A stretch of DNA of 62,398 bases, the filler included. It is 5 parts of 5 records of this genome, joined end to end, with 100 filler letters (N's around TTAATTAATTAA, not from the genome) between each part and the next. Parts side by side here need not be neighbours in the genome. Positions count along the whole stretch, not along the records: positions 36,606 to 43,664 come from SRR2962707_1845; 4 more parts are not named here. One strand, 5' to 3'. Under the pieces are notes generated by a model, which was given only the letters and a program-made list of their open reading frames with translations, did not search any database and was not told where the DNA came from. How positions within the stretch are numbered: position 1 is the stretch's first letter; each line of letters starts with the position of its first letter. A program made the position numbers and the translations under genes. Shown one piece after another: positions 31,610 to 48,689 of this stretch.

Positions 31610-31624
31610 TTAACCACTTGTTAA
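31610..31624. promoter_or_regulatory. CtrA-binding box
   Basis: TTAA-CCACTTG-TTAA, an exact TTAA-N7-TTAA match in an otherwise GC-rich intergenic region. Confidence 0.7.
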
Positions 31625-31699
31625 TCAATAATTATTTTAGCCGACATTTTCCCCGGTGCCGCCGCTTTTTTGCCTAAATTGTGGGGCAAATCAGTCAGC

Positions 31700-31897: not shown

Positions 31898-31916
31898 GCC
31901 ATACCGGGAGACGTAC

Positions 31917-32741
31917 ATGAACCGCAGTTCAGCAAAACCCTGTGATAACGAAGGTCGGCATCCCCCGCTCAGCCTGATGTTTCTGTCCGCAGGTCCCGTT
32001 GCAACATGGCCCCTGTTTGATTGGACGCCAGGGCTTTGGACGGCGCTGATGCTGTTTTGCATATTCGGCACAGCGATGGCGCTGATTGCCGAAGGTTACC
32101 GCCGCGAGGCCCTTTATGAAATGGCCGAGGTCGCCCGAAGACCGCTTTTGCCACGCAAACTTGTGGGGTCCGTTCTTATCGGCATTGTGGTGACGGCCCT
32201 TGCCACTGCAAAGCTCCACGCCGGATTACCCGCTGTGGCCTACGGTATGGTCGGGATGCTGCTGTGTCTGTTTGCCTTTGGCGTTGATCCGATGCGCGAC
32301 AAGGGCACGGAAACACCCGAATATCTGGTACGGCAGCGCGTAAAGGATCTGACCTGCACCGCTGATCGCGCACTCGAAGATCTGGTGATCCGTATTCAGC
32401 AGCTTGACGACGATGATCTGAGCCGCCGCACCGATGCGGTGCACAGGGCGGTGACACGCCTGCTGCGCACGCTTGCCCTGGATCCGGTGGCGGTCGAAGC
32501 GGTGCAAAAACCGCTGATGAAATTTCTCCACATGGCTGTGCACGAAGCGGACCGCCTGGACGAGGCATGGTTCACCGAGAGCCACAGCTTTGCGCGCCAC
32601 CGCTATATCGCAAAGCTTTCGGCCATGGCCACCGCATTTGAGGCCTGCGCCCGCCATCACGGTCTAGCCACCCGAGAGGACAGTTATGAGCTTGAAGCCG
32701 AGCTGCTGGTTGACCGATTGATGCACGAAAACGTCGCCTGA
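31917..32741 (+). CDS. Divergent XpaC-like (5-bromo-4-chloroindolyl phosphate hydrolysis family) membrane protein
   Basis: Shares ARRPxxPRK and AFGxDPxxxKG motifs and TM+helical layout with the downstream gene. Confidence 0.7.
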   Translation: MNRSSAKPCDNEGRHPPLSLMFLSAGPVATWPLFDWTPGLWTALMLFCIFGTAMALIAEGYRREALYEMAEVARRPLLPRKLVGSVLIGIVVTALATAKLHAGLPAVAYGMVGMLLCLFAFGVDPMRDKGTETPEYLVRQRVKDLTCTADRALEDLVIRIQQLDDDDLSRRTDAVHRAVTRLLRTLALDPVAVEAVQKPLMKFLHMAVHEADRLDEAWFTESHSFARHRYIAKLSAMATAFEACARHHGLATREDSYELEAELLVDRLMHENVA

Positions 32742-32917
32742 GACTGCTGTTTCACCTTTCACCCCTAGCAAGGGACGGACGATTCACCTAAGTTTGATCC
32801 TAGTTCTTTTGTCCAGGGGGTGACATGTCCGGCACCGGCCTACAAAAAGTGGCTTATGTCCTTTTGATCATACTCCTTTTTGGGGTAAGTTCTGGTTTTG
32901 TCGGGGGGCTTTAGGTT

Positions 32918-33799
32918 ATGGCGCAACGCTTTGGCGGCAAGTTCAGCCCCGATGGTAGCGGGCCATCCGACACAGATCGCCCCGCCTTTGATGGCGCGCG
33001 GATCGATCCGGTTGGGGCGCGCAGTAATCTGCTGTTCCTGCCGCCTTTCATCCTTGCCTTTACGTCACTTACTGCTGGTGCCGCCGGGTTGGCGGTTGGC
33101 CTGCTTGGTGCGGCATCGCTGACGCTCGGCGCCTGGCTGCTGCGCGACGGTTTGCGCGCCGAAGCCGAATACAACGCTCGCCGCGTTGCCCGCCGCCCCG
33201 CTATCCCGCGCAAGATCATGGCGGCGCTCCTCGCAGGGGGGGGTACGGCACTGGCGGCGTTCAAGGGTGACCCCGGTCTTGCCGCGCCGATGATTTATGG
33301 CATTGCGGCCGGGGCTCTGCATATCGGTGCCTTTGGCCTTGATCCACTCAAAAACAAAGGCATGGCAGGCATCGATACCTTTCAACAGGACCGCGTCGCC
33401 CGGGTCGTTGACGAGGCTGAAAAGTATCTTGCCGACATGACCGGGGCCGTCGCCCGCGCTGGGGACCGCCAGGTCGAAGCCCGCGTAGAACGGTTTCAGC
33501 TGCGCGCCCGCGAAATGCTGCGCACGGTCGAAGAAGACCCCCGTGATCTGAGCGGCGCACGCAAGTTCCTGGGCGTTTACCTGATGGGCGCGCGTGATGC
33601 GTCGGTGAAATTCGCCGATATCTATTCCCGCACAAAGGACGCGCAGGCCCGCACCGATTATATGATGCTGCTGACGGATCTCGAAGAAACGTTCGGCGCG
33701 AAAACCAGAAAACTGCTGCTGGATTCCAACAGCGATCTCAACATCGAGATTGACGTTCTGCGCGACCGTCTGAAACGCGAAGGGGTGCGCCTCAACTAG
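32918..33799 (+). CDS. XpaC-family membrane protein (TelA partner)
   Basis: MAQRFGGKFSP start, VEEDPRDL..ARKFL.VYL, DL.IEIDVL; directly upstream of telA. Confidence 0.85.
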   Translation: MAQRFGGKFSPDGSGPSDTDRPAFDGARIDPVGARSNLLFLPPFILAFTSLTAGAAGLAVGLLGAASLTLGAWLLRDGLRAEAEYNARRVARRPAIPRKIMAALLAGGGTALAAFKGDPGLAAPMIYGIAAGALHIGAFGLDPLKNKGMAGIDTFQQDRVARVVDEAEKYLADMTGAVARAGDRQVEARVERFQLRAREMLRTVEEDPRDLSGARKFLGVYLMGARDASVKFADIYSRTKDAQARTDYMMLLTDLEETFGAKTRKLLLDSNSDLNIEIDVLRDRLKREGVRLN

Positions 33800-33829
33800 A
33801 GGCTCCCATTCCAGAATTGAGGATTTGCT

Positions 33830-35029
33830 ATGTCTGAAAATGTCCGCGCCAAAGCGCAGGAAACGCTGGCTCTTGTCGAAGAAGTCAACGCCGTGGTTCT
33901 CCCCGAACCAAAAGATGCCGGTGCCGTTGTGCCGCTGGAACAGGCCGATGCTCATGTGGGCGAGGAAATTCGGTCGCGTATGGCCGAAATCGATATGGCC
34001 GACACCCAGTCCATTATTTCCTTCGGATCTGCCGCGCAGGCGGAATTGCAGGAAATCAGCCAAGCCATGCTGGCGGATGTGCGCAACAAGGATGTTGGCC
34101 CGGCAGGCGATTCACTGCGCACGATGGTCAGCGCGATCCGCGGTTTTTCCGTTTCGGAACTGGACGTGCGTCGCGAACGCAGCTGGTGGGAAAAGCTGTT
34201 GGGCCGGGCCGCGCCCTTTGCCAAGTTCACCGCACGGTTTGAACAGGTCCAGTTGCAGATCGACCGGGTGACTGGGGATCTAGACAAGCATCAGCATACC
34301 CTGCTCAAAGACATCAAATCGCTGGATCTGCTCTACGAAAAAACGCTCGATTTCTATGGCGAACTGGCGCTTTATATCGCGGCAGGCACTGAAAAGCTGC
34401 GCGGTTTGGACACTGTCGACATTCCTGCCAAGGACGCCGAGGTCAAGGCCGCCGCAGAGGCCGATCAGGTGATGCGGGCGCAGGAATTACGTGATTTGCG
34501 CGCCGCGCGCGACGATCTGGAACGCCGGGTGCATGACCTGAAACTGACCCGTCAGGTAACGATGCAGTCCCTTCCGTCGATCCGCCTGGTCCAGGAAAAC
34601 GACAAGAGCCTGGTGACCAAGATCAATTCGACGCTGGTGAACACTGTGCCGCTTTGGGAAACCCAGCTGGCACAGGCGGTCACCATCCAACGGTCTGCCG
34701 AAGCGGCAAATGCCGTTCGCGAAGCCAATGACCTGACCAACGAATTGCTGACCTCCAACGCCAAAAACCTGCGCGATACCAACAAGGTGATCCGTCAGGA
34801 GATGGAGCGCGGCGTATTTGACATCGAAGCGGTCAAACAGGCCAACGCCGATCTGATCGGCACCATCAACGAAAGCCTGCAAATTGCGGACGAAGGCAAG
34901 GCCCGCCGCGCCAAGGCCGAAGATGAGCTGAAAAAGATGGAACACGATCTGCGCGACACGCTGGCCTCGGCCAAAGCGCGGAGCGATGGTTTGGGCGATA
35001 CGGCCGCCACTTCGGTTCCAAAGGCCTGA
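33830..35029 (+). CDS. telA: Toxic anion (tellurite) resistance protein TelA
   Basis: FG..AQ, LERRVHDL.LTRQV..QSLPSIRLVQ.ND..L..KI, TVPLWETQ. Confidence 0.92.
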   Translation: MSENVRAKAQETLALVEEVNAVVLPEPKDAGAVVPLEQADAHVGEEIRSRMAEIDMADTQSIISFGSAAQAELQEISQAMLADVRNKDVGPAGDSLRTMVSAIRGFSVSELDVRRERSWWEKLLGRAAPFAKFTARFEQVQLQIDRVTGDLDKHQHTLLKDIKSLDLLYEKTLDFYGELALYIAAGTEKLRGLDTVDIPAKDAEVKAAAEADQVMRAQELRDLRAARDDLERRVHDLKLTRQVTMQSLPSIRLVQENDKSLVTKINSTLVNTVPLWETQLAQAVTIQRSAEAANAVREANDLTNELLTSNAKNLRDTNKVIRQEMERGVFDIEAVKQANADLIGTINESLQIADEGKARRAKAEDELKKMEHDLRDTLASAKARSDGLGDTAATSVPKA

Positions 35030-35030
35030 C

Positions 35031-35987
35031 ATGATCTGGCGCGGACTTGCAGTTGTCATTGCCTTGTCGGCCCTCGTGGCCTGCGAACCGCTGCCGCCTG
35101 CCCAGACAGATGTCACGCCGCAAGATACGATCGTGACCGGCCCCTCTGGGGACCGGCCGGTAGCAAGGCGTCTGCCGTCCGTGGCCAGCGCAGCGCTGGC
35201 CACGTATTACACGCGGGTCCAGGCCGACCTGCTGTCGCAGGGGCTGCTGCGCACCGATGGCGGCGGGCCGGACACACCGTTTACCGACACGATGCTTGTG
35301 CGCGATTTCGAACAGATCGCCCTGGCCGAAGAATACGAACGCGGTCAGGGCTTTCGTCCTTCTTCGGGGCGACTGGGCCGGATCAAAAAATGGACACAGC
35401 CAGTGCGCGTGACGGCCGAATTCGGCCCCTCTGTCACCGATGCGGAACGTCAAGAGGACGGCGCCATGCTCGCGCGCTATGTCAGGCGTCTGGCCCAGAT
35501 GACGGGGCATTCCATCACGATGTCCGACAGCAACCCCAATTTTCACGTCCTGTTCATGAGCGAGGACGACCATGCGTTGATCGCGCCGCGCATCACGGCG
35601 CTTGTACCGAACGTCAATCCGGCCTCGCTGCAGATCTTTGACAACATGCCGCGGGCAATCCACTGTCTTGTCATCGCCTTTTCCGTGGACAACGGCGGCT
35701 ACGACTATGGTCAGGCCATTGCCGTGATCCGCGCCGAACACCCCGATCTGCTGATGCGGTCCTGCGTGCACGAAGAGGTCGCACAGGGACTGGGGCTGTC
35801 CAACGACAGCCCGCAGGCCCGTCCATCGATCTTTAACGACGATGACGAATTCGCCCTGCTTACCCGGCACGACGAAACCCTTCTCAAGATGCTGTACGAC
35901 CCCCGGCTGACGCCCGGCATGACCGCCGAAGAGGCCCGCCCCATCGTGGTGGACCTTGCCAGCCGCTATGTCGGCGGAGCAATCTGA
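35031..35987 (+). CDS. DUF2927-family lipoprotein (zincin-like HEE motif)
   Basis: Lipobox LVA-C; SCVHEEVAQGLGL.ND..RPSIFNDDDEF..LT.HD. Confidence 0.85.
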   Translation: MIWRGLAVVIALSALVACEPLPPAQTDVTPQDTIVTGPSGDRPVARRLPSVASAALATYYTRVQADLLSQGLLRTDGGGPDTPFTDTMLVRDFEQIALAEEYERGQGFRPSSGRLGRIKKWTQPVRVTAEFGPSVTDAERQEDGAMLARYVRRLAQMTGHSITMSDSNPNFHVLFMSEDDHALIAPRITALVPNVNPASLQIFDNMPRAIHCLVIAFSVDNGGYDYGQAIAVIRAEHPDLLMRSCVHEEVAQGLGLSNDSPQARPSIFNDDDEFALLTRHDETLLKMLYDPRLTPGMTAEEARPIVVDLASRYVGGAI

Positions 35988-36013
35988 CCCAATGACCGAC
36001 AGGAGGCCATGAT

Positions 36014-36505
36014 ATGGGCATTTTCGATTTTCTCAGTGGACAGTTTATTGACGTCATCCACTGGACCGACGACACCCGCGATACGATGGTCTGGCGCTTT
36101 GAACGCGAGGGCCACGAGATCAAGTATGGCGCCAAACTGACCGTCCGCGAAGGTCAGGCAGCCGTATTTGTCCACGAAGGTCAACTGGCGGATGTGTTCA
36201 CCCCGGGGCTTTATATGCTCGAAACGAACAACATGCCGATCATGACATCGCTGCAGCATTGGGATCACGGTTTCAAATCCCCGTTCAAATCCGAAATCTA
36301 TTTCGTCAACACCACCCGGTTCAACGACCTCAAATGGGGCACCAAGAATCCGATCATTGCACGCGATCCTGAATTCGGTCCGGTGCGCCTGCGCGCCTTT
36401 GGCACCTATTCGACCCGCGTTAGCGACGCTGCAAAGTTCCTGACCGAGATCGTCGGCACGGACGGCGAATTCACTATGGACGAGATCAGCTATCAGATCC
36501 GCAAC
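36014..36505 (+). CDS. SPFH-domain protein (YdjI-like), 3'-truncated at contig end
   Basis: FIDVIHW, LTVREGQAAVFV, PG.Y.LET.N.P, KWGTKNPI, VRLRAFGTY. Confidence 0.88.
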
Positions 36506-36605
36506 NNNNNNNNNNNNNNNNNNNNNNNNNNNNNNNNNNNNNNNNNNNNTTAATTAATTAANNNNNNNNNNNNNNNNNNNNNNNNNNNNNNNNNNNNNNN
36601 NNNNN
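36506..36605. other. Artificial contig linker
   Basis: N44-TTAATTAATTAA-N44. Confidence 0.98.
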
Positions 36606-36709
36606 TCGGTGACAGTTCGATGACAGCCACCCGCTAAACCCGCCGTTTATTCCCGCGTCCGGCCTCTCATGGTAAGGTCCGGCGGGTTCAAGCGGGGGTT
36701 CAGGGGCGC

Positions 36710-38149
36710 GTGGAAGACAAAAAACGGGGGCCGTTCGACGTCAATTTTCTCGTCAGTCTTTTTCTGGCGCTCGCCGTCTGGATGGGCCTCAGAAACGAGA
36801 CGGTTTGGGCCAGTTTTGTGGGCGAAGCTGACCGCGAGGCAATCCAGATCGCCTTCGCCATGCGCGTCAACCGGACGCTCGAAGGCACAGGCCCCATCCT
36901 CTTCCTGAACCTCGACGATTCCGTCTGGCACGGCGAACAAAGCGACAGCCCGCCGCTCGCCTACGCCCCCCGTCCCGTCATCTACGATCTCCTCCGCGCC
37001 TCCTACGGAACACCAGGCTTTCCGCGCCCGAAAGTCGTCGTCGCCGACTTCGACCTCTTCTGGCGCACCCCCGACGAAGACGCCGAGCAGCGCATCGATA
37101 CGCTCCTGGAAGAGTGGGGCAAGGACCCCGAAGCGCCGCTCCTCGTGCTCCAGCGCGAAGTGGTAGACGGCGACGGCCGCCGTGACGCCCCCGCCGCAAT
37201 AAGACCGTCGCAACGCGACCGCTACATCGACGAAGCGCCCGAAGGAAACATCGTCTGGGCCAGCGCCCTCTTCACAGGCGACGAAGTGATCGGCGCCCGC
37301 TACTTCGAACATTTTCTCTGCCTGAAATCGGATGCCGGCCCCGGCGTCGTCGCAAGCACCGCGCTTTACGCAATGGCGGGCCGCCGCGCGAGTTCCGCCC
37401 GCGAAGCCGCCGCACAGGTCGATGCCGCAATGAAAAAGCCGCTCCGCTATTGCGCCGGTGAAGGATCCGAAACTTACGAACTCGAAATCACGGGCCGTGA
37501 GCCCGCCGGATTTCACAGCCAGCGAAGCCTGATTAACTATAGCGCGCGGCCGCAGGGCGATTTCGATTTCACGAGCCCCGGTCTTATCGCGGCCGACATG
37601 TTCGTGATCCCCGCCGCCGCGGTCAGCAGCGAAATGGTGGGTGGCCTTGCCGCAAATAACGGCATCGTGATTATCGGATCGGCATCCCTGACCGCCCGCG
37701 ACCGTCACATCACGCCCTACGGGCCGATGGGCGGTAGTCTGATCATCGCCAATACCGTACGCGGACTGGAGGTCGGCGGCCAGGTTCACCGCCTCCACTG
37801 GATCATCGAGGCGACCTTATTGTCCGTATTCGTCTCATTGATCGTTCTGGCTTTCTGGTATTGCCGTCTCGCCCGCGAAATCGTCGATATAGAGCCGGCA
37901 TCGCAGGTTCCCTGGTATGTCGAGGCCTACCAGATACCCTTCGCCCTCGTGACCAACCCCGTTATCGTTAAGATCCTGATTGGCGTTTCGGTTTTTTGGC
38001 TCGGCGCGCTCGCAACTTACTATATGCTCGACTACGGATTGTGGATCGGGTTCGCGGCACCCGCTTACGCAGCAGCGTTGAACGAGGCACGTGAAGACTT
38101 TGAAGAACTGATGGAGAATCTCCGTGAAAAGAAAGCTCGCGCAAAATAG
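36710..38149 (+). CDS. CHASE2-domain membrane sensor lacking a cytoplasmic output domain
   Basis: N-terminal TM; ILFLNLDD, PR....L, PKVVVADFD, and GIVIIGS....D.HITPYG.M.G..IIAN (CHASE2 hallmarks); about three C-terminal TMs then a 22-aa tail. Confidence 0.8.
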   Translation: MEDKKRGPFDVNFLVSLFLALAVWMGLRNETVWASFVGEADREAIQIAFAMRVNRTLEGTGPILFLNLDDSVWHGEQSDSPPLAYAPRPVIYDLLRASYGTPGFPRPKVVVADFDLFWRTPDEDAEQRIDTLLEEWGKDPEAPLLVLQREVVDGDGRRDAPAAIRPSQRDRYIDEAPEGNIVWASALFTGDEVIGARYFEHFLCLKSDAGPGVVASTALYAMAGRRASSAREAAAQVDAAMKKPLRYCAGEGSETYELEITGREPAGFHSQRSLINYSARPQGDFDFTSPGLIAADMFVIPAAAVSSEMVGGLAANNGIVIIGSASLTARDRHITPYGPMGGSLIIANTVRGLEVGGQVHRLHWIIEATLLSVFVSLIVLAFWYCRLAREIVDIEPASQVPWYVEAYQIPFALVTNPVIVKILIGVSVFWLGALATYYMLDYGLWIGFAAPAYAAALNEAREDFEELMENLREKKARAK

Positions 38150-39035
38150 GTGGATGCTCGTCCTCGGGGCGATGGCTCTTGCCGCACCGCTGGGAAGCAG
38201 CGGAGCCGCCGCGGCGATCGCGCCCTGTTCGTCCGCAACCGTCGCATTCGTGAAAAGCATCAAGGGTGAAGGCACCAATGTCGTGCTGGCGCGCGGCGGA
38301 GAGGAGGCGCAGCTCGCGCCGTTCTCGCCGCTCTGCACCGGCGACGTGCTGAAACTCAAAACCGCGGATGAGGCCGTCGTGCTCGGTCTCGCCGGCAGCA
38401 CCGCTCCGGCGGAAGTCGTCGGCCCCGTCGCCTACAATGTCGGCCCGGCAAGTTCCGGCGGTGAAGCACTGACGGAAGTGCTCGAGGATCGTCTCCTCCC
38501 GCTCGGCGAGCGCACCATCGGTCAGGGATTGGCCCGCTCCGCCGATCCGTTTGAATTCGGTCTGCTCGATCTCGAAACCGAATCCGCGCAGATCGGCGCG
38601 GGCCACCGCCCGCTCTGGGTCGGTTGGGCCGGCGGCAAGCCGCCCTTCGACATGACGGTAACGGGTCCCTCGGGCCAGACCCTTGAAATGCGGGCGCTTG
38701 AGGCGAACGACTATCTGTTTCCCGCTTCCGACATCGAACTGGGCCGCTATTCGGTTTCCATCTCGGACGCGAACGGCAGAACACGCGAAACCGGTTTTGA
38801 AGCCGTGAGCGATGTGCCGGAAGTGGCGACGGTTTCCGTTCCGGCCTGGATGGGTGCGGATTCGGGCGCGATGCTCAAGGCATTCTGTGTCGCCGCCGAA
38901 GATCCCTACACATGGTCTTTCGAAGCCGCGCAGCAACTCGCCGCCGCACCCGATGCCGGTCTCGACCGCGAAACCGCGCTGGCGCTGATCGGCTCTGGCG
39001 ATACCGTCGCGCTCTGCCCCGGCGGAAACGGCTGA
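38124..39035 (+). CDS. Secreted hypothetical protein (possible DUF928-like partner of CHASE2/CHAT)
   Basis: GGAGA SD before GTG; Sec signal MKRK...AAAA; four Cys; overlaps the CHASE2 3' end by 26 bp. Confidence 0.65.
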   Translation: MKRKLAQNRWMLVLGAMALAAPLGSSGAAAAIAPCSSATVAFVKSIKGEGTNVVLARGGEEAQLAPFSPLCTGDVLKLKTADEAVVLGLAGSTAPAEVVGPVAYNVGPASSGGEALTEVLEDRLLPLGERTIGQGLARSADPFEFGLLDLETESAQIGAGHRPLWVGWAGGKPPFDMTVTGPSGQTLEMRALEANDYLFPASDIELGRYSVSISDANGRTRETGFEAVSDVPEVATVSVPAWMGADSGAMLKAFCVAAEDPYTWSFEAAQQLAAAPDAGLDRETALALIGSGDTVALCPGGNG

Positions 39036-39058
39036 CGCGCTACTGCTGACGCGCTACT
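39031..39058. repeat. Perfect 14-bp tandem duplication at the convergent gene junction
   Basis: GCTGACGCGCTACT x2 (39031-39044, 39045-39058). Confidence 0.9.
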
Positions 39059-42000
39059 GGGCGGAAGCGAGTTTGCCGCTGCTGCGAATGAGCGGCCGGC
39101 TCGCATCGCCGATCACGACGTAAGGCCCCCAGTAATAGGGGTGGCTGAACTTCTGTTCGGCAATCAGCGACATCTGCGCCGTGCGCAACGCATTGTCCAC
39201 CGCCATGCCGTTCGAGCTTGCAAAGAAGCGCCTGACGATGAGGTCGGCCGCGGCATCGTCCGCCACCCAATGCGTCGCCATCACGGATCGCGCACCGGCA
39301 TAGATGAAGCTCCGCACGAGGCCGTCGAGCTGCGCGCCGTCGAAGACCGCGGCAATACCCTGCGCGCCTTCCGCTTCCCGCGCGGTGTCGCAGGCGGCGA
39401 GAAGCACCAGTTCCGCATCGAGCTTCAGGTCGAGGATTTCCGACGCGCTGAGAAACCCGTCACCGCCGTCCTTCGCAAGCGACGTCAGGAGCGAGGGTTC
39501 CGTGATGCAGAACCCGTCTCCGAAGAAACCATGCGTAACGAAGACAAGAACCTGCTGCTTCGCTAAATCGTCGCTGGCCAGAATGCTTCTGTCTGTGAAT
39601 TTCGAACCTGAGATATCCGTGCGGACAAAGCGCGAGGCGACGTCCCCGGCAAGCGGCGTCAGCGGTCTGGTCAGCGCGTCTTCCGAAAGGAACAGGCTGC
39701 CGCACCGGTCGGGCCGTCCTTCGGCCATCATGCGAGTGGTGAAATCGGCCGTCCATGTCGCAGATGTCTGCGGTGGATCGGGCGGCCCGAAAACCGCGAC
39801 GGTGCCGGAAGATTTCGCAGGCCCCGCTTGCCTTGCGGCAACGAAACTCGCCGCGCTCGGCGCGCTCGCGAAGTTGAACTCGGTCGCGAGGAATGCAATG
39901 CCCATATAGTCGCGGGTTCGCTGCGGCGCGCGGATGTCCTCCGGCAGCCGGGAAACGAGAATGGCGGGCGGCACCGATCCGGCGACGCCGCGCGGTGCGA
40001 ACACGATGGTGTCGATGCCTTTGGCGGTGAGTTCGTCATAGACAGGCCCGAAGATGCCTTCGAAGAGTTCATGCGCCTGCTCGACCCCGTAAGGCGGAAC
40101 GCCTGCCGCCCGGCTTCGCAAGGTGACGCGCAGCCGCCGGACGAGCGTCTCGGCAGTCTCCCGGGTCAGTCCTGTTTTGAAGACCCGCGTTTCGCCGCCG
40201 AAGATCGCATAACCGAGCCCGCCGGACCGTGTCGCGGTGAAAGCGATCAGCGCTTCATTGGGGGCAAGGGTAGCGGCGATATCTTCCGTTGCGACGCCAC
40301 GATTAACGAGCTGCATATATTCCGGCTCGGCGCGGCGCGCCTTTGCTTCGGCATCGAGAACCGCGGCTTCCGCAGCCTTCGCCTCCGCTTCGAGCGCGGC
40401 AAGCCTCTCCGGGTCGTCGACGCCCGCTTCCGCCTGCAGCGCCTGCAAGGCGTCGCCGAGTTTGCGTTCCGCGTCCTGGAGTGCCCTTATCTCCTCCGAC
40501 GCAGCTTCCGAGCCGATACGCGCGGAGGCGAGCGCCATGGCAGCGGCAGCGCGCGGTTCCACGACGGCCTCGAATGCCTGAATGTAACGCTCCTTGAGCA
40601 GGGCAGCGTCGCCTTCGTTCCGGTCGATGGCTTCGACGAGAAGCGCCAGGTACTCGCCCGCATTGTCGGGTGAGACACCGAAGGAACCTTCGACGCCAAG
40701 ATAGAGTTCGAAGGCTTCGTGATAATCGGCAAGCGCGCCCGCTTCGTCTCCCGTTGCAAGGCGTGCGCGCCCGAGGCTGGTCAGGAAGCGTGCCGTGAGA
40801 AGCGAACGAGGCTCCTGCTTGCGCCACTTCACGAGCACCGCCTGCAGCCGCCCGATGGCCGCGCTGGCGCGCCCCGCGTCGATATCGTCAAGCGCCCGCT
40901 TTTCATCCACCAGCGTTTCGAGCCACAGCACCGATCCGGCGGGGGCGGAAAGAATAAGCGCGGAGGCTTCGTCGAGCGCCGCAGCCGCTTCCGGCTGCTT
41001 TCTGAACGAAAGCGCGACTGCCCGGATATAGGCCCGGTGCGCCTTCAGCACGATAGCGCGAACTTCCGGCCGCAACTCGGTGTTCGAATAGAGGGGCGGC
41101 GCGCTGTTGCTGTCGCGCTGGTTCACATAGCCCGCCTCGCGTGCGGTGATGACGCTGAGATCGCCCGTGCCGCCATGGGTAAGCACGGCGTTCCCGTCTT
41201 CAAGGTCGATTGCGAAATCCCGCTTCGCCTCGGCGAGCGCAGCGCTGTAGTCGCCCTTGTTCAGATAGTGAACGGCGCGGTAGTTAACGATCTTGTCCTG
41301 AACCCACGCCGTCGTTTGCGAGCCGAGGGAACTCGATGTGTCCTCGAGCAGGCGCTCGGCTTCGGCGAACCGGCCCTGATTGCTGAGGTTCAGCGCGAGG
41401 TCGAGGGTGATGTCGGCGCGCCGCGCGGCATCGCCGCCGAAAAGCCCGTCCTGTATGGCGACCGCCTGAGCGTAGTCGGCGGCGGCCTGTGCAAATTCAT
41501 AGGAAATATTGCGCTGATGTCCGCGCTTCCGAAGGAGTTCCTGATCTTGCATCGCCTGCACGCCGGGCAGCAGCGCGAGTTCTTCCTCCGACAGCGCCTG
41601 CGGCGCCTCGGCACCGGTGAGAACGGCCGCCGCGCGCTGCATGGCGGGAAGGGCGCCGGGTAGTCCGCGCGCGCGAACATTGCTTTCGGTGCCGCTCATC
41701 TCTATCGCGACGTCCTGAAACAGGTCGCTCGATTGCGCGCCCGGACAGCGCATGACCGTTCCCTGCGCCGAGCTGAACTCGTCTTCCGGTATACATCCCT
41801 CAAGGAGCGAGCGGTCGAGCCCCGCCGCCTCCGCGGATTGAACCCTGACGATGGCAGCGGCCTTCCGCCATTTGCCGCAGAACAGTTCGTATTGCGCGCC
41901 GTCGCCGCCTGCGACCTCGATATCGTCGCGCCGGATCGCGCGGCAGGTTTCCGCGTCGGCGCTCGCACCGAGGTCGAGAGAGGCCGGAAATTTTTCGACC

Positions 42001-42068
42001 GGCACGCTGACGCAGCCCGCCAACAGCGGGAGAAGAAGCGCGAGGAAGATGAACCGTTTGCTCGTCAT
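39054..42068 (-). CDS. Lipoprotein TPR-CHAT (caspase-fold) protease
   Basis: Lipobox LLAG-C after MTSKRF; TPR-like helices (LALNLSNQGRFAEAE); CHAT motifs FVTHG (His codon 39531-39533), DGFLSASEI, LVLLAAC (Cys codon 39390-39392), GLVRSFIYAGARSV.ATHW.ADD, SHPYYWGPY. Confidence 0.9.
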   Translation of the reverse strand: MTSKRFIFLALLLPLLAGCVSVPVEKFPASLDLGASADAETCRAIRRDDIEVAGGDGAQYELFCGKWRKAAAIVRVQSAEAAGLDRSLLEGCIPEDEFSSAQGTVMRCPGAQSSDLFQDVAIEMSGTESNVRARGLPGALPAMQRAAAVLTGAEAPQALSEEELALLPGVQAMQDQELLRKRGHQRNISYEFAQAAADYAQAVAIQDGLFGGDAARRADITLDLALNLSNQGRFAEAERLLEDTSSSLGSQTTAWVQDKIVNYRAVHYLNKGDYSAALAEAKRDFAIDLEDGNAVLTHGGTGDLSVITAREAGYVNQRDSNSAPPLYSNTELRPEVRAIVLKAHRAYIRAVALSFRKQPEAAAALDEASALILSAPAGSVLWLETLVDEKRALDDIDAGRASAAIGRLQAVLVKWRKQEPRSLLTARFLTSLGRARLATGDEAGALADYHEAFELYLGVEGSFGVSPDNAGEYLALLVEAIDRNEGDAALLKERYIQAFEAVVEPRAAAAMALASARIGSEAASEEIRALQDAERKLGDALQALQAEAGVDDPERLAALEAEAKAAEAAVLDAEAKARRAEPEYMQLVNRGVATEDIAATLAPNEALIAFTATRSGGLGYAIFGGETRVFKTGLTRETAETLVRRLRVTLRSRAAGVPPYGVEQAHELFEGIFGPVYDELTAKGIDTIVFAPRGVAGSVPPAILVSRLPEDIRAPQRTRDYMGIAFLATEFNFASAPSAASFVAARQAGPAKSSGTVAVFGPPDPPQTSATWTADFTTRMMAEGRPDRCGSLFLSEDALTRPLTPLAGDVASRFVRTDISGSKFTDRSILASDDLAKQQVLVFVTHGFFGDGFCITEPSLLTSLAKDGGDGFLSASEILDLKLDAELVLLAACDTAREAEGAQGIAAVFDGAQLDGLVRSFIYAGARSVMATHWVADDAAADLIVRRFFASSNGMAVDNALRTAQMSLIAEQKFSHPYYWGPYVVIGDASRPLIRSSGKLASAQ

Positions 42069-43663
42069 CTGACCCCGGCTCCCCACAGGCTTTCGTTGCC
42101 GGTCGCGGCGATGCCGCCGAGATCGCCCTCGCCGTCGAGATCGTCCTCTTCGTCGTCGAAGCTCAGATCGGGCCCTGCGACATAGGGGTTGGGGTCGCTG
42201 CCCGCGACGCCCGCCGTCGGTTCGGCTTCGCGGAGGAGCGCATTGGAGCAGCTGACCGCATCTCCGATGATGCAGAGATTGAAACGATATTCCTTCGATT
42301 GCCCGAGCGGCTCCTCGACCACATTGCCGCTTCCGTCCGTCGTTCCGGGAAACAGAATGCGTGGTTCGAGACCGGCGGAGTAACTGGTCACGCGGGTGCC
42401 GTCATCGCGGATGATCACGCCGAAGAGCACGACTTTCTCCGGCCCGTTGCCCGAGGGATTGACGACCCCTTCGCCGACAGCGGCCACCTTGAAGACAATG
42501 CCGCGGCCGTCGACACCGGTACCCGTATTGAGCTGGACGATATCGCCGGGTGCATGGAGCTTCAGGTCATCCGCCGCGATAAAGATATGGTTGCGCCGGC
42601 TCTTGTAGGTGGCGGGGTTCAGTTTGCCGAGCGTCGAGAGGGATGGATCGTTGGCTTCGTAGAAAGCCCGGAACGCTTGCGGCCCGATGATGATGTCTTG
42701 CGAGGAATTGAGGGTAACGGCGCCGAGCCGCCCGGTTGCCGTGTCCCTCCCGAGTTCGCCGGGAACGACGATGAGCCCCGGGCGCCTGTCGTCTGCGCCG
42801 TCGACATAGCCGAGCGTGAGCGCATCGAGGCCCTGAACCGAACCGGCCGCAATGATCTGCGAACTGTTGCTCGCGCCAATTGACAGGTCGCCGAGCGTGG
42901 CGCCCGTGAAGTCGACATCGAGGAGCAGGGCATCGTTTGCTTCCGCGTCGATCCGGAGCGTCCCCGTCGATATGCGGGAAAGTTCGTCCGCGTCGATGGT
43001 GAGGCCGGCGGGATTGCGCAGGATCACTGTGCCCGTTCCGCCATCGCCGCCCAGCACCACGGTGGTTCCACTGTCGAGCGAGGTCAGGCGGACTTCGTCG
43101 CCCGCGCTGATCGAGCCGGACAGGTCGAGGTCGAGCGCCATGATGCTGACATTCGTGAGCGACGAGATCCTGTTGATGATGGCGTCGCCCTGACCGGCTT
43201 CGAGCAGCAGCAGGCCGCCATTGGCGGTAACGGATCCTTGCACATCGACGTCCCCCGTCAGGGCCTGCAGCGACGCCTGCCCCATCGTGACGATATCGCC
43301 GAGAACGTCTATGGCGCCCGCGACGATCGTCGTATCTCCATCGCTCTCCATGTCTCCGACCGTCGCCAGTCCAAGCTTGGCTTCGACCAGAATGTCGCCG
43401 TTTTCCGATGTCGTCTTCCCGCCGAGCGTCGCATCGCCCGCCAACGCGCGGAAGGTTGCGTCGCCGCCGGCCGTCGCGTCGCCGCTAACGTCCAGACTTG
43501 CAGCCGTCACCTCGATGGTCGTTTCGGCATCGAGCGCGGCGAGGCTTGCTTCGCCATCTGCGTCGATCTCGATGGAACCGGTCGTGGCGGTGATCGTGTC
43601 GGAGGCCGTTATGTCGCCTGCGGCTTCCAGATCGACGCTCGCCGCCTCGACGGTTCCCTGAAG
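42065..43663 (-). CDS. C-terminal part of a large filamentous-hemagglutinin-like repeat protein, 5'-truncated
   Basis: Frame is open to the contig end (LQGTVEAASVDLEAAGDITA...); Gly/Ala/Thr/Asp-rich beta-helix-like repeats; stop overlaps the CHAT start (ATGA). Confidence 0.72.
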   Translation of the reverse strand, partial: LQGTVEAASVDLEAAGDITASDTITATTGSIEIDADGEASLAALDAETTIEVTAASLDVSGDATAGGDATFRALAGDATLGGKTTSENGDILVEAKLGLATVGDMESDGDTTIVAGAIDVLGDIVTMGQASLQALTGDVDVQGSVTANGGLLLLEAGQGDAIINRISSLTNVSIMALDLDLSGSISAGDEVRLTSLDSGTTVVLGGDGGTGTVILRNPAGLTIDADELSRISTGTLRIDAEANDALLLDVDFTGATLGDLSIGASNSSQIIAAGSVQGLDALTLGYVDGADDRRPGLIVVPGELGRDTATGRLGAVTLNSSQDIIIGPQAFRAFYEANDPSLSTLGKLNPATYKSRRNHIFIAADDLKLHAPGDIVQLNTGTGVDGRGIVFKVAAVGEGVVNPSGNGPEKVVLFGVIIRDDGTRVTSYSAGLEPRILFPGTTDGSGNVVEEPLGQSKEYRFNLCIIGDAVSCSNALLREAEPTAGVAGSDPNPYVAGPDLSFDDEEDDLDGEGDLGGIAATGNESLWGAGVR

Positions 43664-43664
43664 G

Positions 43665-43764
43665 NNNNNNNNNNNNNNNNNNNNNNNNNNNNNNNNNNNN
43701 NNNNNNNNTTAATTAATTAANNNNNNNNNNNNNNNNNNNNNNNNNNNNNNNNNNNNNNNNNNNN
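43665..43764. other. Artificial contig linker
   Basis: N44-TTAATTAATTAA-N44. Confidence 0.98.
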
Positions 43765-43765
43765 T

Positions 43766-44071
43766 CATAATCAGGACAAGGTCAGCATGGGCACGATTGC
43801 CGCACGCGATTGCCTGCGCGTCCTGCAACTGACCGAACAGGTCGTGGCGGCAAACCTTTTGGCTGTTGGTCAGGCCATCGCGTTGCGCGAAAAATCTGGT
43901 GAATTAACCAAGAAACAACTCGGCCCCAAGGTTTCGGCCTTTATCGACAGCTTAAAGGAAGACATTCCTTTCATCGCCGAAGACCAACCGCTTGAAGGCA
44001 CCTTGCGCCTTCTGGTGTCGCGCATTCAGAAACGCCACTGGGCGCTCTATGATGAAGAAATCGCATCATGA
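43766..44071 (+). CDS. C-terminus of a HAL/PAL/TAL-family aromatic amino-acid ammonia-lyase (5'-truncated)
   Basis: HNQDKVSMGTIAARDC motif read from the contig start. Confidence 0.85.
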   Translation, partial: HNQDKVSMGTIAARDCLRVLQLTEQVVAANLLAVGQAIALREKSGELTKKQLGPKVSAFIDSLKEDIPFIAEDQPLEGTLRLLVSRIQKRHWALYDEEIAS

Positions 44072-44478
44072 TCAGTGCATCTGTCACCGAAACGATTCAG
44101 TTTTATCATCTTGATCCGATGAATGTCGTCTGGCACGGCAACTACGTGCAGTTCTTTGAAAATGCGCGCTGTGCGCTTTTGGAAAAGATTGACTACAACT
44201 ATCCGCAAATGGATGCATCGGGCTATGTCTGGCCGATTGTTGACATGCGGGTCAAATATGTCGGGCCCTGCACCTTTGGGCAAAAAATCACCATCACAGC
44301 AACCTTACGCGAATTCGAAAATCGCCTGAAAATTGATTATCTGATCACGGATACGAAAACGGGCACCAAACTGACCAAGGGCTTTACCATTCAGGTCGCA
44401 GTGGAAAAAGACACCGGCGAAATGCTGTTTCGCAGTCCCGACTTCCTGATTGAGAGGCTGGAGGCCATGACCCCATGA
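44068..44478 (+). CDS. apeK: 4HBT-type acyl-CoA thioesterase (ApeK-like)
   Basis: F..LDPMNVVWHGNY..FFE.AR; E.ENRLKI.Y; ape gene order. Confidence 0.82.
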   Translation: MISASVTETIQFYHLDPMNVVWHGNYVQFFENARCALLEKIDYNYPQMDASGYVWPIVDMRVKYVGPCTFGQKITITATLREFENRLKIDYLITDTKTGTKLTKGFTIQVAVEKDTGEMLFRSPDFLIERLEAMTP

Positions 44479-45125
44479 CGCACCGATGGTCAAAAGCTGT
44501 GGCATTGTTTCTGTTCTGTGCGGCGGTGCTTCCAGCATTTCCGGTCCATGCGGACGCAACAAATTTAACATCAACCGTCATGCCAACCCCGATCAGCGAT
44601 CGGCAATATCTGACCGGCACCTTTGCCCTTGACCGCCATCTTGACGGCTTTGACGCACCACTTACCTCGACCGGTGACTTTGCCCTGTCGCCCCGCAAAG
44701 GTCTGATTTGGCAAAACCTGAAACCGTTTCCCGATACCACCGTGATGAACGATCAGGGAATTGCCCGCAAACATGATGACGGCACATTTGAAACCATTGC
44801 ATCAGGTGCGCGGTTTCATCAGTTCATCGCGCTGATTTCAGCCGTTCTTGCCGGAAACTGGGAACCGCTGTCTGATCAATTCACCATCACACCCACAAAG
44901 ACCGCCACAGCATCGAACTGGCAAGTCACACTGGCCCCAAAGAACAACAACGGATTGTCCGAACAGGTCAGCCAGATCGTCATTAAAGGGGGTGAATTTG
45001 TCACCCACGTCACCCTGCACAAACCATCAGGTGATCGCGACGAAATCACGTTGAGCAACCAAACCCGCCACGACCTGCCACTCCCCGATGATCTTGCCAA
45101 TCTGCTTTCGGGAAACCCTGATTGA
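44475..45125 (+). CDS. apeL: LolA-like lipoprotein carrier (ApeL-like)
   Basis: Signal peptide; PL.S.G.F....GLIW....PF; W.VTL.P; ape gene order. Confidence 0.8.
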   Translation: MTHRWSKAVALFLFCAAVLPAFPVHADATNLTSTVMPTPISDRQYLTGTFALDRHLDGFDAPLTSTGDFALSPRKGLIWQNLKPFPDTTVMNDQGIARKHDDGTFETIASGARFHQFIALISAVLAGNWEPLSDQFTITPTKTATASNWQVTLAPKNNNGLSEQVSQIVIKGGEFVTHVTLHKPSGDRDEITLSNQTRHDLPLPDDLANLLSGNPD

Positions 45126-47437
45126 TGGCAGTGCGCGGGGGTATATGGGGCATTTTCCTGTTGATCATGGCGACCTTTGCCATTTGGCAGGTCACATCGG
45201 ACAATGCCCGGATTGATGGCGATGTCCTGTCCCTGATCGGGTTGGAAAAAACCGACGATGCTGCCGGCAAATCCGATATCGAAACCGTGCGCGACTTACT
45301 GGCAAATGATGCCAATCAGGCCATCATTATGGTGTCGACCAACCAGCAAGATATGCTTGAAACGGCAACCCGTGCGTTGGCTTCTGACATCGCAAACATT
45401 CCGGGCACAAAGTCGGTTTCTATGCCGGGATATGACGCGGGAAACCTTGCGCGGCTTTCAGATTTTTACCTGCCCCATGCGCAAAGCCTGCTGTCGGACA
45501 GGGACCGGGCTCTTTTGCGCGACGGCAACGGTGAAGCGGTTTATCAAAACGCGGTCAAAACGTTGTATGCGCCGGCTTCAATGGTCAGTGCGGCATCGCT
45601 CCGTGCTGATCCGTTTTCCCTGCTTCCCGGTTTTCTGGCCGAACTGGGCAACAAACTTGGCTCTTCCGGGATCGTGCAGAGAGACAACCACTTGCACACC
45701 CCGATCATCATATCCCTGACCCCGGACCTTCGGCGTCAAGGACGGGACATCGCATGGGTGGGCAAGGTCAATGACGCCATCGCCAACGCCCAAAGCACCG
45801 CAGATCAATCTGACGGACTCACCATCGCGAAAACCGGGCAAGTCTTTTTCGCTGTGGCCGAGGCAACTGCTGCAAAATCCGATGTCCAGCGCATCGCCAT
45901 CATTGCGACCCTTGGCATTTTTGCCATGGTGCTCAGTGTGTTTTTCTCCCCACTCCCCCTGATCGGCACCTTGATCACGGTCGGCAGCGGCTTGATCGCC
46001 GGTATTGCTGCCGTCACCCTGATTTTCGATGGCATTCATGCCATTGCGCTGGTCTTCGGGGCCAGTCTGATCGGGATATCGGTCGATTATGCGCTGCATT
46101 ATCTGGTGCTACCCGCCGATGAAAAATCACCGACGGCCCGGATTGCGACGATCCGTTCCGGCCTAAGCCTTGGCCTTTTGACCTCGGTTTGCGGCTTTGC
46201 GGTTTTAGCCATCAGCCCGGCCATCCTTCTGGCCCAAATCGCGGTTTATTCCATCGCCGGGCTTATCGCGGCCTATGTCACCGTGCTTTTCGTCCTCCCA
46301 CTTTTGCCCGTGCGAAGCGTCAAGCACCGGTCGCTCATCCCGCGTGCGTATCAGAAACTTGATGATACCTTGCGCCGCCTAAGACTGCCCCGGTTGGTCC
46401 GGGGGGTGGGTGCGCTTGCCATCCTTGGTGGATTTGCGGTCTGCGTTCTGTTCATACCAACCGATGATGACATCCGCCATCTCGGGCATGGCAACGACAC
46501 TCTGACAACGCAGGCGCGCCTGATCGGCGATACCATGGGCATGGGCGGCAACCCCGTCTTTATCCGGATTGATGGCGCAGACAGCCAAACCCGCCTTCAA
46601 ACGGGAGAGGCCGTACAAAACGCACTCCGCCCCCTGATCAAAGACGGCACTATCGGGTCTGCCTTTGGCTTGTCGGACATGATCCCATCAATCAAACGAC
46701 AGGACGAAAACCGTACCCTGATCAAAGATCAGCTCTTTGAAACTTACGCACCAAAACTGGCACCGCTGCTTCCGATCAACATTCAAACGCCCAACCCCGA
46801 CGCCCCTTATTTACACGCCGACGCAGATGCTTTTGCCCAGTTCCCGGAACTGGCAAACCTGCATGATGGCATGACCGATATCGTCCGGCTAAACGCCGTG
46901 ACCGATGCCAATGCTGTTGCCACGGCAATTGCCGACATCGACGCCGCCCGTTTAATCAACCCGCGCGCCACCATCACCGACCAGTTCGCCCATTATCGCA
47001 ACTGGGCAACGGCGGGATTGGCGATTGCCTTGTTGATTGCCGGGGTTCTTGCCATGGGACGCTATGGCATGATCCGTGGGCTATGTGTTTTAGGAACGCC
47101 TGCGGGGGCGATGCTTGTTGCACTTGGCGGGGCGGCTGCAATCGGGATCACAATCAATTTCTTTACCATCATGGCACTGTTTCTGGTGTTTGCCATCGGG
47201 GCCGATTACGTGATCTTCTTTTCCGAAAGCCAAAAGCACGGCCAACAGGATGCGACCCGGTTTGCCGTGTTCTTATCGCTGATCAGCAGCATTTTGGCCT
47301 TTGGCCTGCTCGCCAGCAGTTCTGTTCCCGTGGTCAGTGCCATCGGAACAATCATGGCCATTGGACTTCCAACTGCATGGGTGCTTTCCTATGCCATGTG
47401 CCCCACATCCGTGAAAGCCGATCAATCTGATGTCTGA
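45122..47437 (+). CDS. apeM: MMPL/RND-like exporter (ApeM-like)
   Basis: Multi-TM; L.ADPF.L, FG.SLIGISVDYA.HY, IGADY.IF. Confidence 0.85.
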   Translation: MMAVRGGIWGIFLLIMATFAIWQVTSDNARIDGDVLSLIGLEKTDDAAGKSDIETVRDLLANDANQAIIMVSTNQQDMLETATRALASDIANIPGTKSVSMPGYDAGNLARLSDFYLPHAQSLLSDRDRALLRDGNGEAVYQNAVKTLYAPASMVSAASLRADPFSLLPGFLAELGNKLGSSGIVQRDNHLHTPIIISLTPDLRRQGRDIAWVGKVNDAIANAQSTADQSDGLTIAKTGQVFFAVAEATAAKSDVQRIAIIATLGIFAMVLSVFFSPLPLIGTLITVGSGLIAGIAAVTLIFDGIHAIALVFGASLIGISVDYALHYLVLPADEKSPTARIATIRSGLSLGLLTSVCGFAVLAISPAILLAQIAVYSIAGLIAAYVTVLFVLPLLPVRSVKHRSLIPRAYQKLDDTLRRLRLPRLVRGVGALAILGGFAVCVLFIPTDDDIRHLGHGNDTLTTQARLIGDTMGMGGNPVFIRIDGADSQTRLQTGEAVQNALRPLIKDGTIGSAFGLSDMIPSIKRQDENRTLIKDQLFETYAPKLAPLLPINIQTPNPDAPYLHADADAFAQFPELANLHDGMTDIVRLNAVTDANAVATAIADIDAARLINPRATITDQFAHYRNWATAGLAIALLIAGVLAMGRYGMIRGLCVLGTPAGAMLVALGGAAAIGITINFFTIMALFLVFAIGADYVIFFSESQKHGQQDATRFAVFLSLISSILAFGLLASSSVPVVSAIGTIMAIGLPTAWVLSYAMCPTSVKADQSDV

Positions 47438-48689
47438 CAATCATTCTGAAAGCCACCTCATGACCGATTGTGACATCGCCATCATCGGTGCCGGACCGGC
47501 CGGAACGGTTGCGGCCAAATTTCTCCGTGATGCGGGATTAAACGTGATTGTGCTCGAAGCGCAAACCTTCCCGCGCTTTGTCATCGGCGAAAGCCTTCTG
47601 CCTCACTGCATGAATGTGCTTGAGCGGGCTGGTTTGCTTGTTGCGGTCGAAAAAGCCGGTTTCCAGCACAAAAACGGGGCCGTCTTTGAACGCGGACCAC
47701 TTTATCAATCCATTGATTTTCGCGAAAATTTCGAAGACAGCGGATGGGGCACCACCTTTCAGGTTCAACGCAGCCGGTTTGATCACATTCTAGCCCAAAC
47801 CACCATCGATGCCGGGGTCGATATCCGTTTTGGGCATAAGGTCACCGATGCGGTCTTGTGCGATGGTGACTGCACCCTCGACTATGAAAATGATGCGGGT
47901 CAAACCGGTCGGATAAGATCGACGTTTGTTCTCGACGCCAGTGGTTATGGCCGGGTCCTGCCCCGAATGCTCGGCATTGTAAAATCAAGTCAGTCGACCG
48001 AACGGCGCGCCCTGTTTACCCATCTGCGCGACCATATATCCGAAGCCAATTATGACCGGGAAAAAATCCTGATCACGGTCCACCCGACCTGTTCCGAAAT
48101 CTGGTATTGGCTGATCCCGTTTTCCGACGGCACGTCCTCTGTCGGGGTGATTTATCCCGATCAGTACCCGGAATTTGATGGTCTTGATGATCAGGCCATC
48201 TTTGATCGCCTGATTGGTGATACGGGCCTTGGCCCCCTTTTGGCCAAGGCCGAACCAACCCGTCCTCTTAATGCCATTGCCGGATACAGCGCACAATCGG
48301 ACACCCTTTTTGGCGACGGCTATGTCCTTCTGGGCAATTCCGCCGGTTTTCTTGACCCGGTTTTTTCATCGGGTGTGACCATTGCCATGCATTCCGCCGA
48401 ACTGGCGGCAAAGGCGCTTATTGCGCGTCACAATGGTAAGGCCGTCGATTGGGATGCGGATTACGCCATTCCGCTTAACCGGGGTGTGGAAACGTTCCGT
48501 TCATATGTCGATGCATGGTATGACGGACGTCTACAAACGATTATTTTCAATCAGCCCGATGATGATACAAAACTCAAACGTATGGTTGTTTCGATCCTTG
48601 CAGGATACGCTTGGAACCTCGACAATCCGCTGGTAAGCAAAACTGACCGTTATCTGGAGATGTTGCACGACCTATGCGATCCATCCTGA
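47430..48689 (+). CDS. FAD-dependent oxidoreductase with flavin-dependent halogenase signatures
   Basis: GAGPAG, FPRFVIGESLLP, FQHKNG, WYWLIP (WxWxIP), FLDPVFSSG. Confidence 0.85.
   Translation: MSDNHSESHLMTDCDIAIIGAGPAGTVAAKFLRDAGLNVIVLEAQTFPRFVIGESLLPHCMNVLERAGLLVAVEKAGFQHKNGAVFERGPLYQSIDFRENFEDSGWGTTFQVQRSRFDHILAQTTIDAGVDIRFGHKVTDAVLCDGDCTLDYENDAGQTGRIRSTFVLDASGYGRVLPRMLGIVKSSQSTERRALFTHLRDHISEANYDREKILITVHPTCSEIWYWLIPFSDGTSSVGVIYPDQYPEFDGLDDQAIFDRLIGDTGLGPLLAKAEPTRPLNAIAGYSAQSDTLFGDGYVLLGNSAGFLDPVFSSGVTIAMHSAELAAKALIARHNGKAVDWDADYAIPLNRGVETFRSYVDAWYDGRLQTIIFNQPDDDTKLKRMVVSILAGYAWNLDNPLVSKTDRYLEMLHDLCDPS

Follow-up and report, generated by a model that had tools for sequence, protein, structure and literature searches.

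A conserved gene module joining an exported CHAT protein, a two-partner secretion exoprotein, a CHASE2 protein and a secreted partner: a candidate for regulated extracytoplasmic proteolysis

A 62,398-nt stretch of DNA (the window, meaning the whole stretch at its full length) carries a group of genes for a predicted caspase-fold protease of the CHAT family, a two-partner secretion (TPS) exoprotein (TpsA), a CHASE2 membrane protein and a small secreted protein, here called the partner. All four lie on the segment 36606-43664, a complete 7,059-bp piece (7.06 kb) between two artificial linkers. The four open reading frames (ORFs) form two convergent, internally overlapping pairs, with CHASE2 and the partner on the plus strand and a TpsA fragment and CHAT on the minus strand. 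An earlier interpretation made from the letters alone (the sequence-only reading) had claimed these ORFs and their convergent, overlapping layout, and all of them were recovered at the following coordinates:

36606..43664, no strand assigned: whole segment with the module, flanked by linkers 36506-36605 and 43665-43764
36710..38149, + strand: stand-alone CHASE2 membrane protein, 479 aa (Pfam, hydropathy, present in 17/17 loci of the bacterial family described below)
38124..39035, + strand: secreted partner, 303 aa (signal peptide, KRK-hydrophobic; overlaps the CHASE2 gene)
39054..42068, - strand: predicted lipoprotein protease with N-domain, TPR and CHAT regions, 1004 aa from ATG (Pfam CHAT and TPR matches)
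39390..39392, - strand: catalytic Cys893 (LAAC), invariant in 25/25 aligned homologues
39531..39533, - strand: catalytic His846 (FVTHG), invariant in 25/25 aligned homologues
42012..42026, - strand: lipobox LLAGC, CHAT residues 15-19 (lipobox pattern)
42065..42068, - strand: ATGA stop/start overlap of TpsA and CHAT, with the TpsA TGA inside ATGA
42065..43663, - strand: C-terminal 532 aa of TpsA, 5' end cut by the linker (identical to the tail of database protein P0216)
42083..42157, - strand: acidic run followed by the C-terminal DLGG.A..GNE.LW in the TpsA tail (orthologue alignments)
42248..42274, - strand: invariant Cys-x7-Cys (CIIGDAVSC) in the TpsA tail, motif N.C.IGD..SCS (orthologue alignments)

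The CHAT protein matches Pfam CHAT (PF12770) over residues 670-994 (122.7 bits, cut-off 24, E = 2.5e-35), with an additional TPR_12 match (8.8e-5) that falls under the curated cut-off. Its N-terminus reads MTSKRFIFLALLLPLLAG-C, meeting the bacterial lipoprotein pattern [LVI][ASTVI][GAS]C. Across a family alignment of 25 sequences, reaching down to 25% identity, the His/Cys dyad is invariant and four N-domain cysteines (C42, C64, C92 and C108) are nearly so, as expected for disulfides outside the cytoplasm. The lipobox, the cysteines of the N-domain, the TPR-like region and the intact dyad described in the sequence-only reading were all found. A set of 44 CHAT homologues was fetched with the non-CHAT part of the protein as query. 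An export signal or lipobox is present in 41 of them: a strict lipobox in 29, a cysteine after a hydrophobic segment with unusual -2/-1 residues in 9, and a signal of the signal peptidase I type in 3. One of the 44 is N-terminally truncated and 2 have other architectures. The distant CHAT proteins of metagenomic modules keep the N-domain motif and start with ordinary signal peptides, and the protein is also encoded by named cultured relatives such as Pyruvatibacter mobilis. By these predicted signals, the CHAT family is an exported one.

Export sets the family apart from the characterised CHAT proteins. HetF, type III-E Csx29/TPR-CHAT and the gasdermin-activating proteases share the Pfam CHAT domain and the His/Cys dyad but are cytoplasmic. 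The sequence-only reading had presented an exported CHAT protein as unusual; this holds with respect to the characterised members but not more widely, as signal-peptide-like or lipobox starts (judged by eye) are present in 12/12 cyanobacterial TPR-CHAT proteins read. When the family profile was compared with the PDB, the TPR region matched kinesin-light-chain TPRs at 8e-10; the kinesin-light-chain-like region comprises CHAT residues ~170-310 and 400-470 (window 40659-41560). A solved CHAT structure was not detected by sequence, as phmmer of the CHAT protein against PDB sequences gave none and the family profile matched TPR proteins only. Kinesin light chain TPRs bind acidic peptides containing Trp or Tyr, and the N-terminal TPR region of Csx29 positions its substrate.

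The gene upstream of CHAT encodes the tail of a TPS exoprotein. The 532-aa fragment itself has no match in Pfam or NCBIfam. Its identity comes from P0216 (1763 aa), whose last 532 residues are identical to the fragment and which has a signal peptide and a precomputed Pfam TPS domain (PF05860); orthologous TpsA proteins at loci L003, L002 and L004 carry the TPS domain at 75-85 bits. The 5' truncation is a junction artefact, because the linker cuts the gene at 43664. A transporter of the ShlB/FhaC type had been predicted upstream of the truncated gene, and a TpsB gene matching the ShlB (PF03865) and POTRA_2 (PF08479) profiles was indeed found in relatives, outside the window. In L003, from a Parvibaculum sp. 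metagenome-assembled genome whose CHAT protein is 90% identical, TpsB occupies 4532-6271 (ShlB 1.2e-20, POTRA_2 2.5e-14) and is followed by a 1232-aa TPS-domain protein and CHAT, with the partner and CHASE2 convergent to them. The segment holds the distal two thirds of an envelope module with five genes, in which TpsB, TpsA and CHAT run in one direction and face the pair of CHASE2 and partner.

Within this module, the junction of TpsA and CHAT is strictly kept. The ATGA overlap at 42065-42068, which the sequence-only reading took for a coupling signal, is present in the window and in 19/19 orthologous loci (20/20 in all), and CHAT is predicted from this overlap to be made by translational coupling with TpsA. 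The exoprotein itself is conserved over its last ~480 aa, and the shaft is variable in length (1125-2231 aa between loci). Shaft length also differs among closer relatives: the TpsA homologues P0216-P0226, which are 86-100% identical in the C-terminal 532 aa, are 1154-1763 aa long. The beta-helical shaft therefore gains and loses repeats fast between close strains. The tail carries three fixed elements, the C-x7-C motif, an acidic run and a terminal GNE[SAG]LW, present in 20/20 aligned loci and 28/28 database homologues; the distant TpsA of L138 has a related C-x6-C and a terminal GNGDLW.

On the opposite strand, the CHASE2 protein scores slightly below the Pfam threshold (PF05226, 25.6 bits vs a cut-off of 26.3, E 1.1e-5), and its full-length-alignable homologues score 52-66 bits (52.7-66.1). 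A crude Kyte-Doolittle scan places hydrophobic segments at 9-27, 364-382 and 411-429, with a further stretch to ~470. This hydropathy pattern corresponds to an N-terminal transmembrane helix, a periplasmic CHASE2 domain and C-terminal transmembrane helices. In the clade of the window, the remaining cytoplasmic tail is ~20 aa long, without an output domain.

With the GTG at 38124 as start codon, the partner gene would share 26 nt with the end of the CHASE2 gene. Its product has four conserved cysteines (C35, C71, C255 and C298) and three regions: an N-terminal beta-rich part, a central Ig/PKD-like sandwich (~aa 145-230), so assigned from profile matches to solved Ig-like domains, and a C-terminal helical part. 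A word-indexed search returned 22 clusters of the family, and an exhaustive profile search returned 1683 proteins at E <= 1e-3, of which 418 reach E <= 1e-10. The proteins from the profile search are of two kinds, ~290-aa full-length relatives and giants that repeat the central ~60-residue unit of the partner. No Pfam family matches the partner; none of 54 full-length homologues gave a significant match, apart from two CHASE2-containing fusions. At E <= 1, 76 partner members gave weak Ig-type matches only, among the matches listed. An NCBIfam scan of all four window proteins gave no meaningful match.

DUF928 (PF06051), a family for which the sequence-only reading advised a profile check, was rejected as the identity of the partner within the reach of the following comparisons. 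No DUF928 match was found at E <= 0.01 in the window protein and its 54 homologues, DUF928 is absent from the 25 of 39 families listed at E <= 1 for the 76 members, and hhalign gave a probability of 0.26% when a partner profile of 81 sequences was compared with 30 cyanobacterial DUF928 sequences. A FecR-like N-terminal region, suspected from the sequence pattern, was likewise dropped for want of a Pfam match at E <= 1. In a 401-genome sample of the class, 17 further genomes have short proteins or domains whose match is confined to the first ~100-150 positions of the partner profile (E 1e-7 to 1e-10), and the N-terminal region (~1-150, window 38124-38573) may be a separate, more widespread domain. 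A feature search of the ESM Atlas with the partner homologue P0018 led to unnamed Pseudomonadota clusters; among clusters with a name, those closest are of the MtxA type (DUF7354 / MtxA_IG-like / MtxA_C) at 0.78-0.82, which is below the reliable level and serves as a lead only. The envelope location claimed earlier for both proteins is borne out by the membrane anchor of CHASE2 and the signal peptide of the partner. Judged by such signals, all products of the module are predicted to be extracytoplasmic.

The distribution of these genes provides further evidence that they belong together. In one alphaproteobacterial family (that of G002), 17 of 73 genomes have a match to the partner profile, and the CHAT profile matched the same 17. 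Partner and CHAT are adjacent and convergent in every one of them (17/17). The full set of TpsA, CHAT, partner and CHASE2 is present in 17/17 family loci and TpsB in 13; the four loci without TpsB end at a contig end inside TpsA. Two of the family loci contain split genes, TpsA in L071 (5761-9070) and CHASE2 in L005 (7610-9059), which are either frameshift pseudogenes or assembly errors. The class sample contained 6 full-length partner matches, 4 in that family and 2 in further genomes with the same cluster. A 401-genome sample of the phylum added one more (genome G591, locus L107), in which the partner is clustered with an unknown 268-aa gene, CHAT and a stand-alone CHASE2.

A metagenome survey of a distant partner subfamily (~25% identity), with a three-sequence alignment as query, yielded 47 loci. 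CHASE2 lies directly upstream of the partner, on the same strand and overlapping it, in 32 of the 33 loci with at least 300 bp of upstream sequence, L140 being the exception. CHAT is present in 15/46 loci with a partner match and in 11/24 of those with at least 1.5 kb downstream or at least 3.5 kb upstream; five loci extend for 5 kb or more on either side, and CHAT was found in 4 of these and TpsB/TpsA in 4. Gene order differs between loci. That of the window is repeated in L138, TpsB/TpsA is divergent from CHAT in L136, L143 and L149, and CHAT lies upstream of CHASE2 in L118, L120, L130 and L150. The association outlasts these rearrangements, which argues for a functional link. The co-occurrence expected by the sequence-only reading is seen in all 17 family loci, in the two further genomes of the class sample and in distant loci.

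Two metagenome loci are of interest in their own right. In L144, a gene for a trypsin-like peptidase (7379-8329) lies divergently upstream of a CHASE2-partner pair without CHAT, a hint that such pairs may also function with proteases of other classes. In L111 (1-7648, - strand), TpsB stands beside the CHASE2-partner pair and is followed by a GLUG-motif protein of >2200 aa rather than a Parvibaculum-type TpsA tail; the contig stops before any CHAT gene could show.

Hidden Markov models of the Parvibaculum-like clade found no partner, CHASE2 or TpsA beside the other 56 CHAT loci, which encode unrelated CHAT proteins. No description of the module was found in the literature searched, which did not cover supplements and subscription journals, and no paper was found there that links the CHAT domain with CHASE2, two-partner secretion, DUF928 or filamentous hemagglutinin.

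A broader counterpart exists in Cyanobacteria. In 5 of the 14 cyanobacterial CHAT loci examined (out of 18 available), namely L024, L025, L035, L038 and L042, a TPR-CHAT gene lies beside at least one of a TPS-domain protein, ShlB, CHASE2 and DUF928. These clusters resemble the module in that an exported TPR-CHAT protein is accompanied by a TPS protein, ShlB, CHASE2 and a secreted protein of ~260 aa. They differ from it in three respects: guanylate-cyclase or GGDEF domains serve as outputs of the CHASE2 proteins, the place of the partner is taken by DUF928, with no detectable relation to it in the hhalign comparison above, and the CHAT proteins are without the Cys-rich N-domain. The module described here is one variant of a broad, undescribed association. 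DUF928 is highly paralogous in genomes G075-G079 (those of L025, L042, L038, L024 and L036), with 5-20 matches each, all above the Pfam cut-off, and 14 control genomes have none. A VEW motif occurs in 3/4 cyanobacterial TpsA tails beside CHAT and is taken as a lead only.

The remainder of the window cannot be used as context for this locus, because the linkers bound the segment. The window is a mosaic of five segments (1-28131, 28232-36505, 36606-43664, 43765-56871 and 56972-62398) joined by four artificial N44-TTAATTAATTAA-N44 linkers at 28132-28231, 36506-36605, 43665-43764 and 56872-56971. G+C content is ~0.33 up to 28.1 kb and ~0.55-0.65 beyond it, stepping from ~0.33 to ~0.58 at the first linker. 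The low-GC segment 1-28131 is 89-94% identical to genome G001 and has no counterpart in G002 and G003, which are Parvibaculum-like, while segment 43765-56871 matches G002/G003 weakly (68-71%, short stretches) and G001 not at all. This pattern of matches indicates that the segments come from at least two organisms. A CHAT orthologue was not found in G001, the nearest of the genomes compared, to which only the low-GC segment matches.

What the module does can be approached through a known system, CdrA/CdrB with LapG/LapD of Pseudomonas aeruginosa. In two papers (PMC4694147, PMC13405001), LapG is described as a periplasmic Cys protease that cleaves the C-terminal 'cysteine hook' retention module of CdrA, itself a TpsA, and that is sequestered by the periplasmic domain of LapD. 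The likenesses are a TpsB/TpsA pair, a TpsA tail with a Cys-containing retention module, a periplasmic Cys protease that removes this tail module (proposed here) and an inner-membrane protein whose large periplasmic domain holds the protease (also proposed here). The TpsA tail resembles the CdrA 'cysteine hook' by analogy. There are also differences: LapG is transglutaminase-like, whereas the protease here is a CHAT protein of predicted caspase fold with TPRs and a lipid anchor, and LapD is a HAMP-GGDEF-EAL protein, whereas the CHASE2 protein here is without a cytoplasmic cyclic di-GMP module. The module also has an extra obligatory secreted partner, its protease gene is translationally coupled to tpsA, and its function is inferred. 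Pfam and NCBIfam searches of the four window proteins for LapG/LapD homology show CHAT, TPR and CHASE2 only. None of its parts being homologous to a Lap protein, the module would form an analogous circuit from other folds.

A second point of comparison is FhaB/FhaC with SphB1 in Bordetella, in which a C-terminal part of the TpsA is removed by an envelope-anchored lipoprotein protease, as proposed here. SphB1, however, is a subtilisin autotransporter and not a CHAT protein, and the system is without a CHASE2 or partner component.

Our preferred interpretation, held tentatively and at somewhat short of even confidence, is that the module is a functional analogue of CdrA/CdrB-LapG/LapD made from unrelated parts, in which CHAT would cut the periplasmic tail of TpsA while CHASE2 and the partner gate CHAT. 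The CHAT lipoprotein would be periplasmic and located at a membrane. The TPR domain, which is like that of kinesin light chain, could then dock the acidic, Trp-containing C-terminal tail of TpsA, and the caspase-fold domain of CHAT would cleave off the C-terminal retention module, so that the exoprotein is matured or released, as CdrA is by LapG. The output-less CHASE2 protein and its obligate secreted partner would form a periplasmic receptor complex that, on an extracytoplasmic cue, restrains or activates CHAT through protein contacts, comparable to LapD acting on LapG. We infer all of these steps beyond localisation. The sequence-only reading, which had suggested that CHAT processes the exoprotein or the partner and that CHASE2 senses the product or controls the protease, is thus supported in part: its predictions on gene content, export and the dyad held, and the proteolytic circuit stands as a proposal. 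The two tightest links in the module are CHASE2 with the partner (overlapping genes, 32/33 loci, and two database proteins, P0146 and P0173, that fuse both in one ORF) and TpsA with CHAT (ATGA, 20/20). That the whole is a purely extracytoplasmic signalling-proteolysis circuit, with CHAT reading the TpsA tail via its TPRs and gated by CHASE2 bound to the partner, is a more doubtful proposition, which we would put forward only as possible.

Several observations weigh against the preferred interpretation. The C-terminal domain of TpsA is recognisably conserved within the Parvibaculum-like clade only, and the domain-level match of the distant L138 TpsA is weak (i-E 0.11). No TPS gene lies within 10 kb in G591/L107, and the CHASE2-partner pairs of L112, L117, L126 and L144 have neither CHAT nor TPS genes in the available sequence. 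The two fused ORFs of CHASE2 and partner may be frameshift or gene-calling artefacts. Because L107 is without a TPS gene and some pairs are without CHAT or TPS, the CHASE2-partner association is the tightest link, followed by that with CHAT. TpsA may be just one client among several.

In a different scheme, proteolysis generates a signal. The substrate of CHAT would be the partner or CHASE2, and TpsA would be a surface antenna that, under contact or load, activates the coupled protease; CHAT would clip the partner and CHASE2 would read the product. Such a scheme accommodates the most tightly conserved pair (CHASE2-partner, 32/33), the usual position of CHAT as convergent neighbour of the partner, the trio without a TPS gene in L107 and the cyclase or GGDEF outputs of cyanobacterial CHASE2 proteins beside CHAT. 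The CHASE2 of the window clade, however, has no output domain on its ~20-aa tail and therefore no obvious signal route, and the strict ATGA coupling joins CHAT to TpsA and not to the partner. We consider this scheme unlikely, but not negligibly so. It is distinctly less probable that CHAT does not process TpsA at all and is either an exoprotease, displayed or delivered as cargo or effector with the aid of the TPS system and directed at external proteins or those of neighbouring cells, or a TPR scaffold that supports TpsA secretion without catalysis. Translational coupling would fit co-export as well, lipoproteins can be surface exposed, and a shaft ranging from 1154 to 1763 aa at 86% tail identity is as expected of a surface interaction protein. 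Against these possibilities, the invariant dyad speaks against a purely structural role, TpsB exports TPS-domain proteins and CHAT has no TPS domain, and the conserved TpsA tail would be left unexplained.

The same tail could also be read as a sorting signal, since it ends in an invariant motif at the extreme C-terminus after a spacer. CHAT would then be a transpeptidase of the sortase/PorU type that removes the TpsA GNExLW and links the exoprotein by a covalent bond to some component of the envelope. Transpeptidation is known from Cys proteases with folds of the caspase/gingipain clan, and one cyanobacterial cluster (L024) includes a PEP-CTERM protein. This is nonetheless improbable, as there is no evidence for an acceptor molecule, no CHAT transpeptidase is reported in the literature searched and the CHASE2-partner pair would have no role. 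Least credible of the alternatives is a conflict system, whether an envelope-sensed caspase-like anti-phage effector or a contact-dependent inhibition (CDI) toxin locus. The patchy distribution of the module (17/73 genomes) would suit it, as would the caspase-fold and CHASE2 fusions in predicted conflict systems (PMC8195603) and a metacaspase-CHASE2 fusion (PMC2853523), but the fusions in both papers concern cytoplasmic caspase domains. Here CHAT is predicted to be exported, so that cytoplasmic targets would be out of reach, and the PADLOC-DB 2.0 models gave 0 matches to six module proteins at E <= 0.001. Membership of the CDI systems (CdiA/CdiB/CdiI) was rejected: the TpsA C-terminus is conserved in 28/28 homologues rather than polymorphic, the VENN motif occurs in 0/28, and the next gene is CHAT and not a small immunity-like gene.

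The module is conserved and undescribed, and it is plausible, with the reserve already expressed, that it carries out regulated extracytoplasmic proteolysis of a TPS protein by folds not previously linked to that role. Genomes commonly encode exported CHAT proteases, CHASE2 domains and members of the partner family, none of which has been given a role in the envelope, and the module offers a compact, genetically tractable set of five genes with clear predictions. It could give the first substrate of an extracytoplasmic caspase-fold protease and the first binding partner of CHASE2. If the module is a purely extracytoplasmic circuit, CHASE2 domains would here act through protein partners and not small molecules, and the widespread cyanobacterial CHAT/TPS/CHASE2/DUF928 clusters could be explained by the same logic. 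Should the Lap-like interpretation be true, unrelated parts would have given rise at least twice to adhesin control through regulated proteolysis in the periplasm. The module would also be a handle on those larger cyanobacterial clusters.

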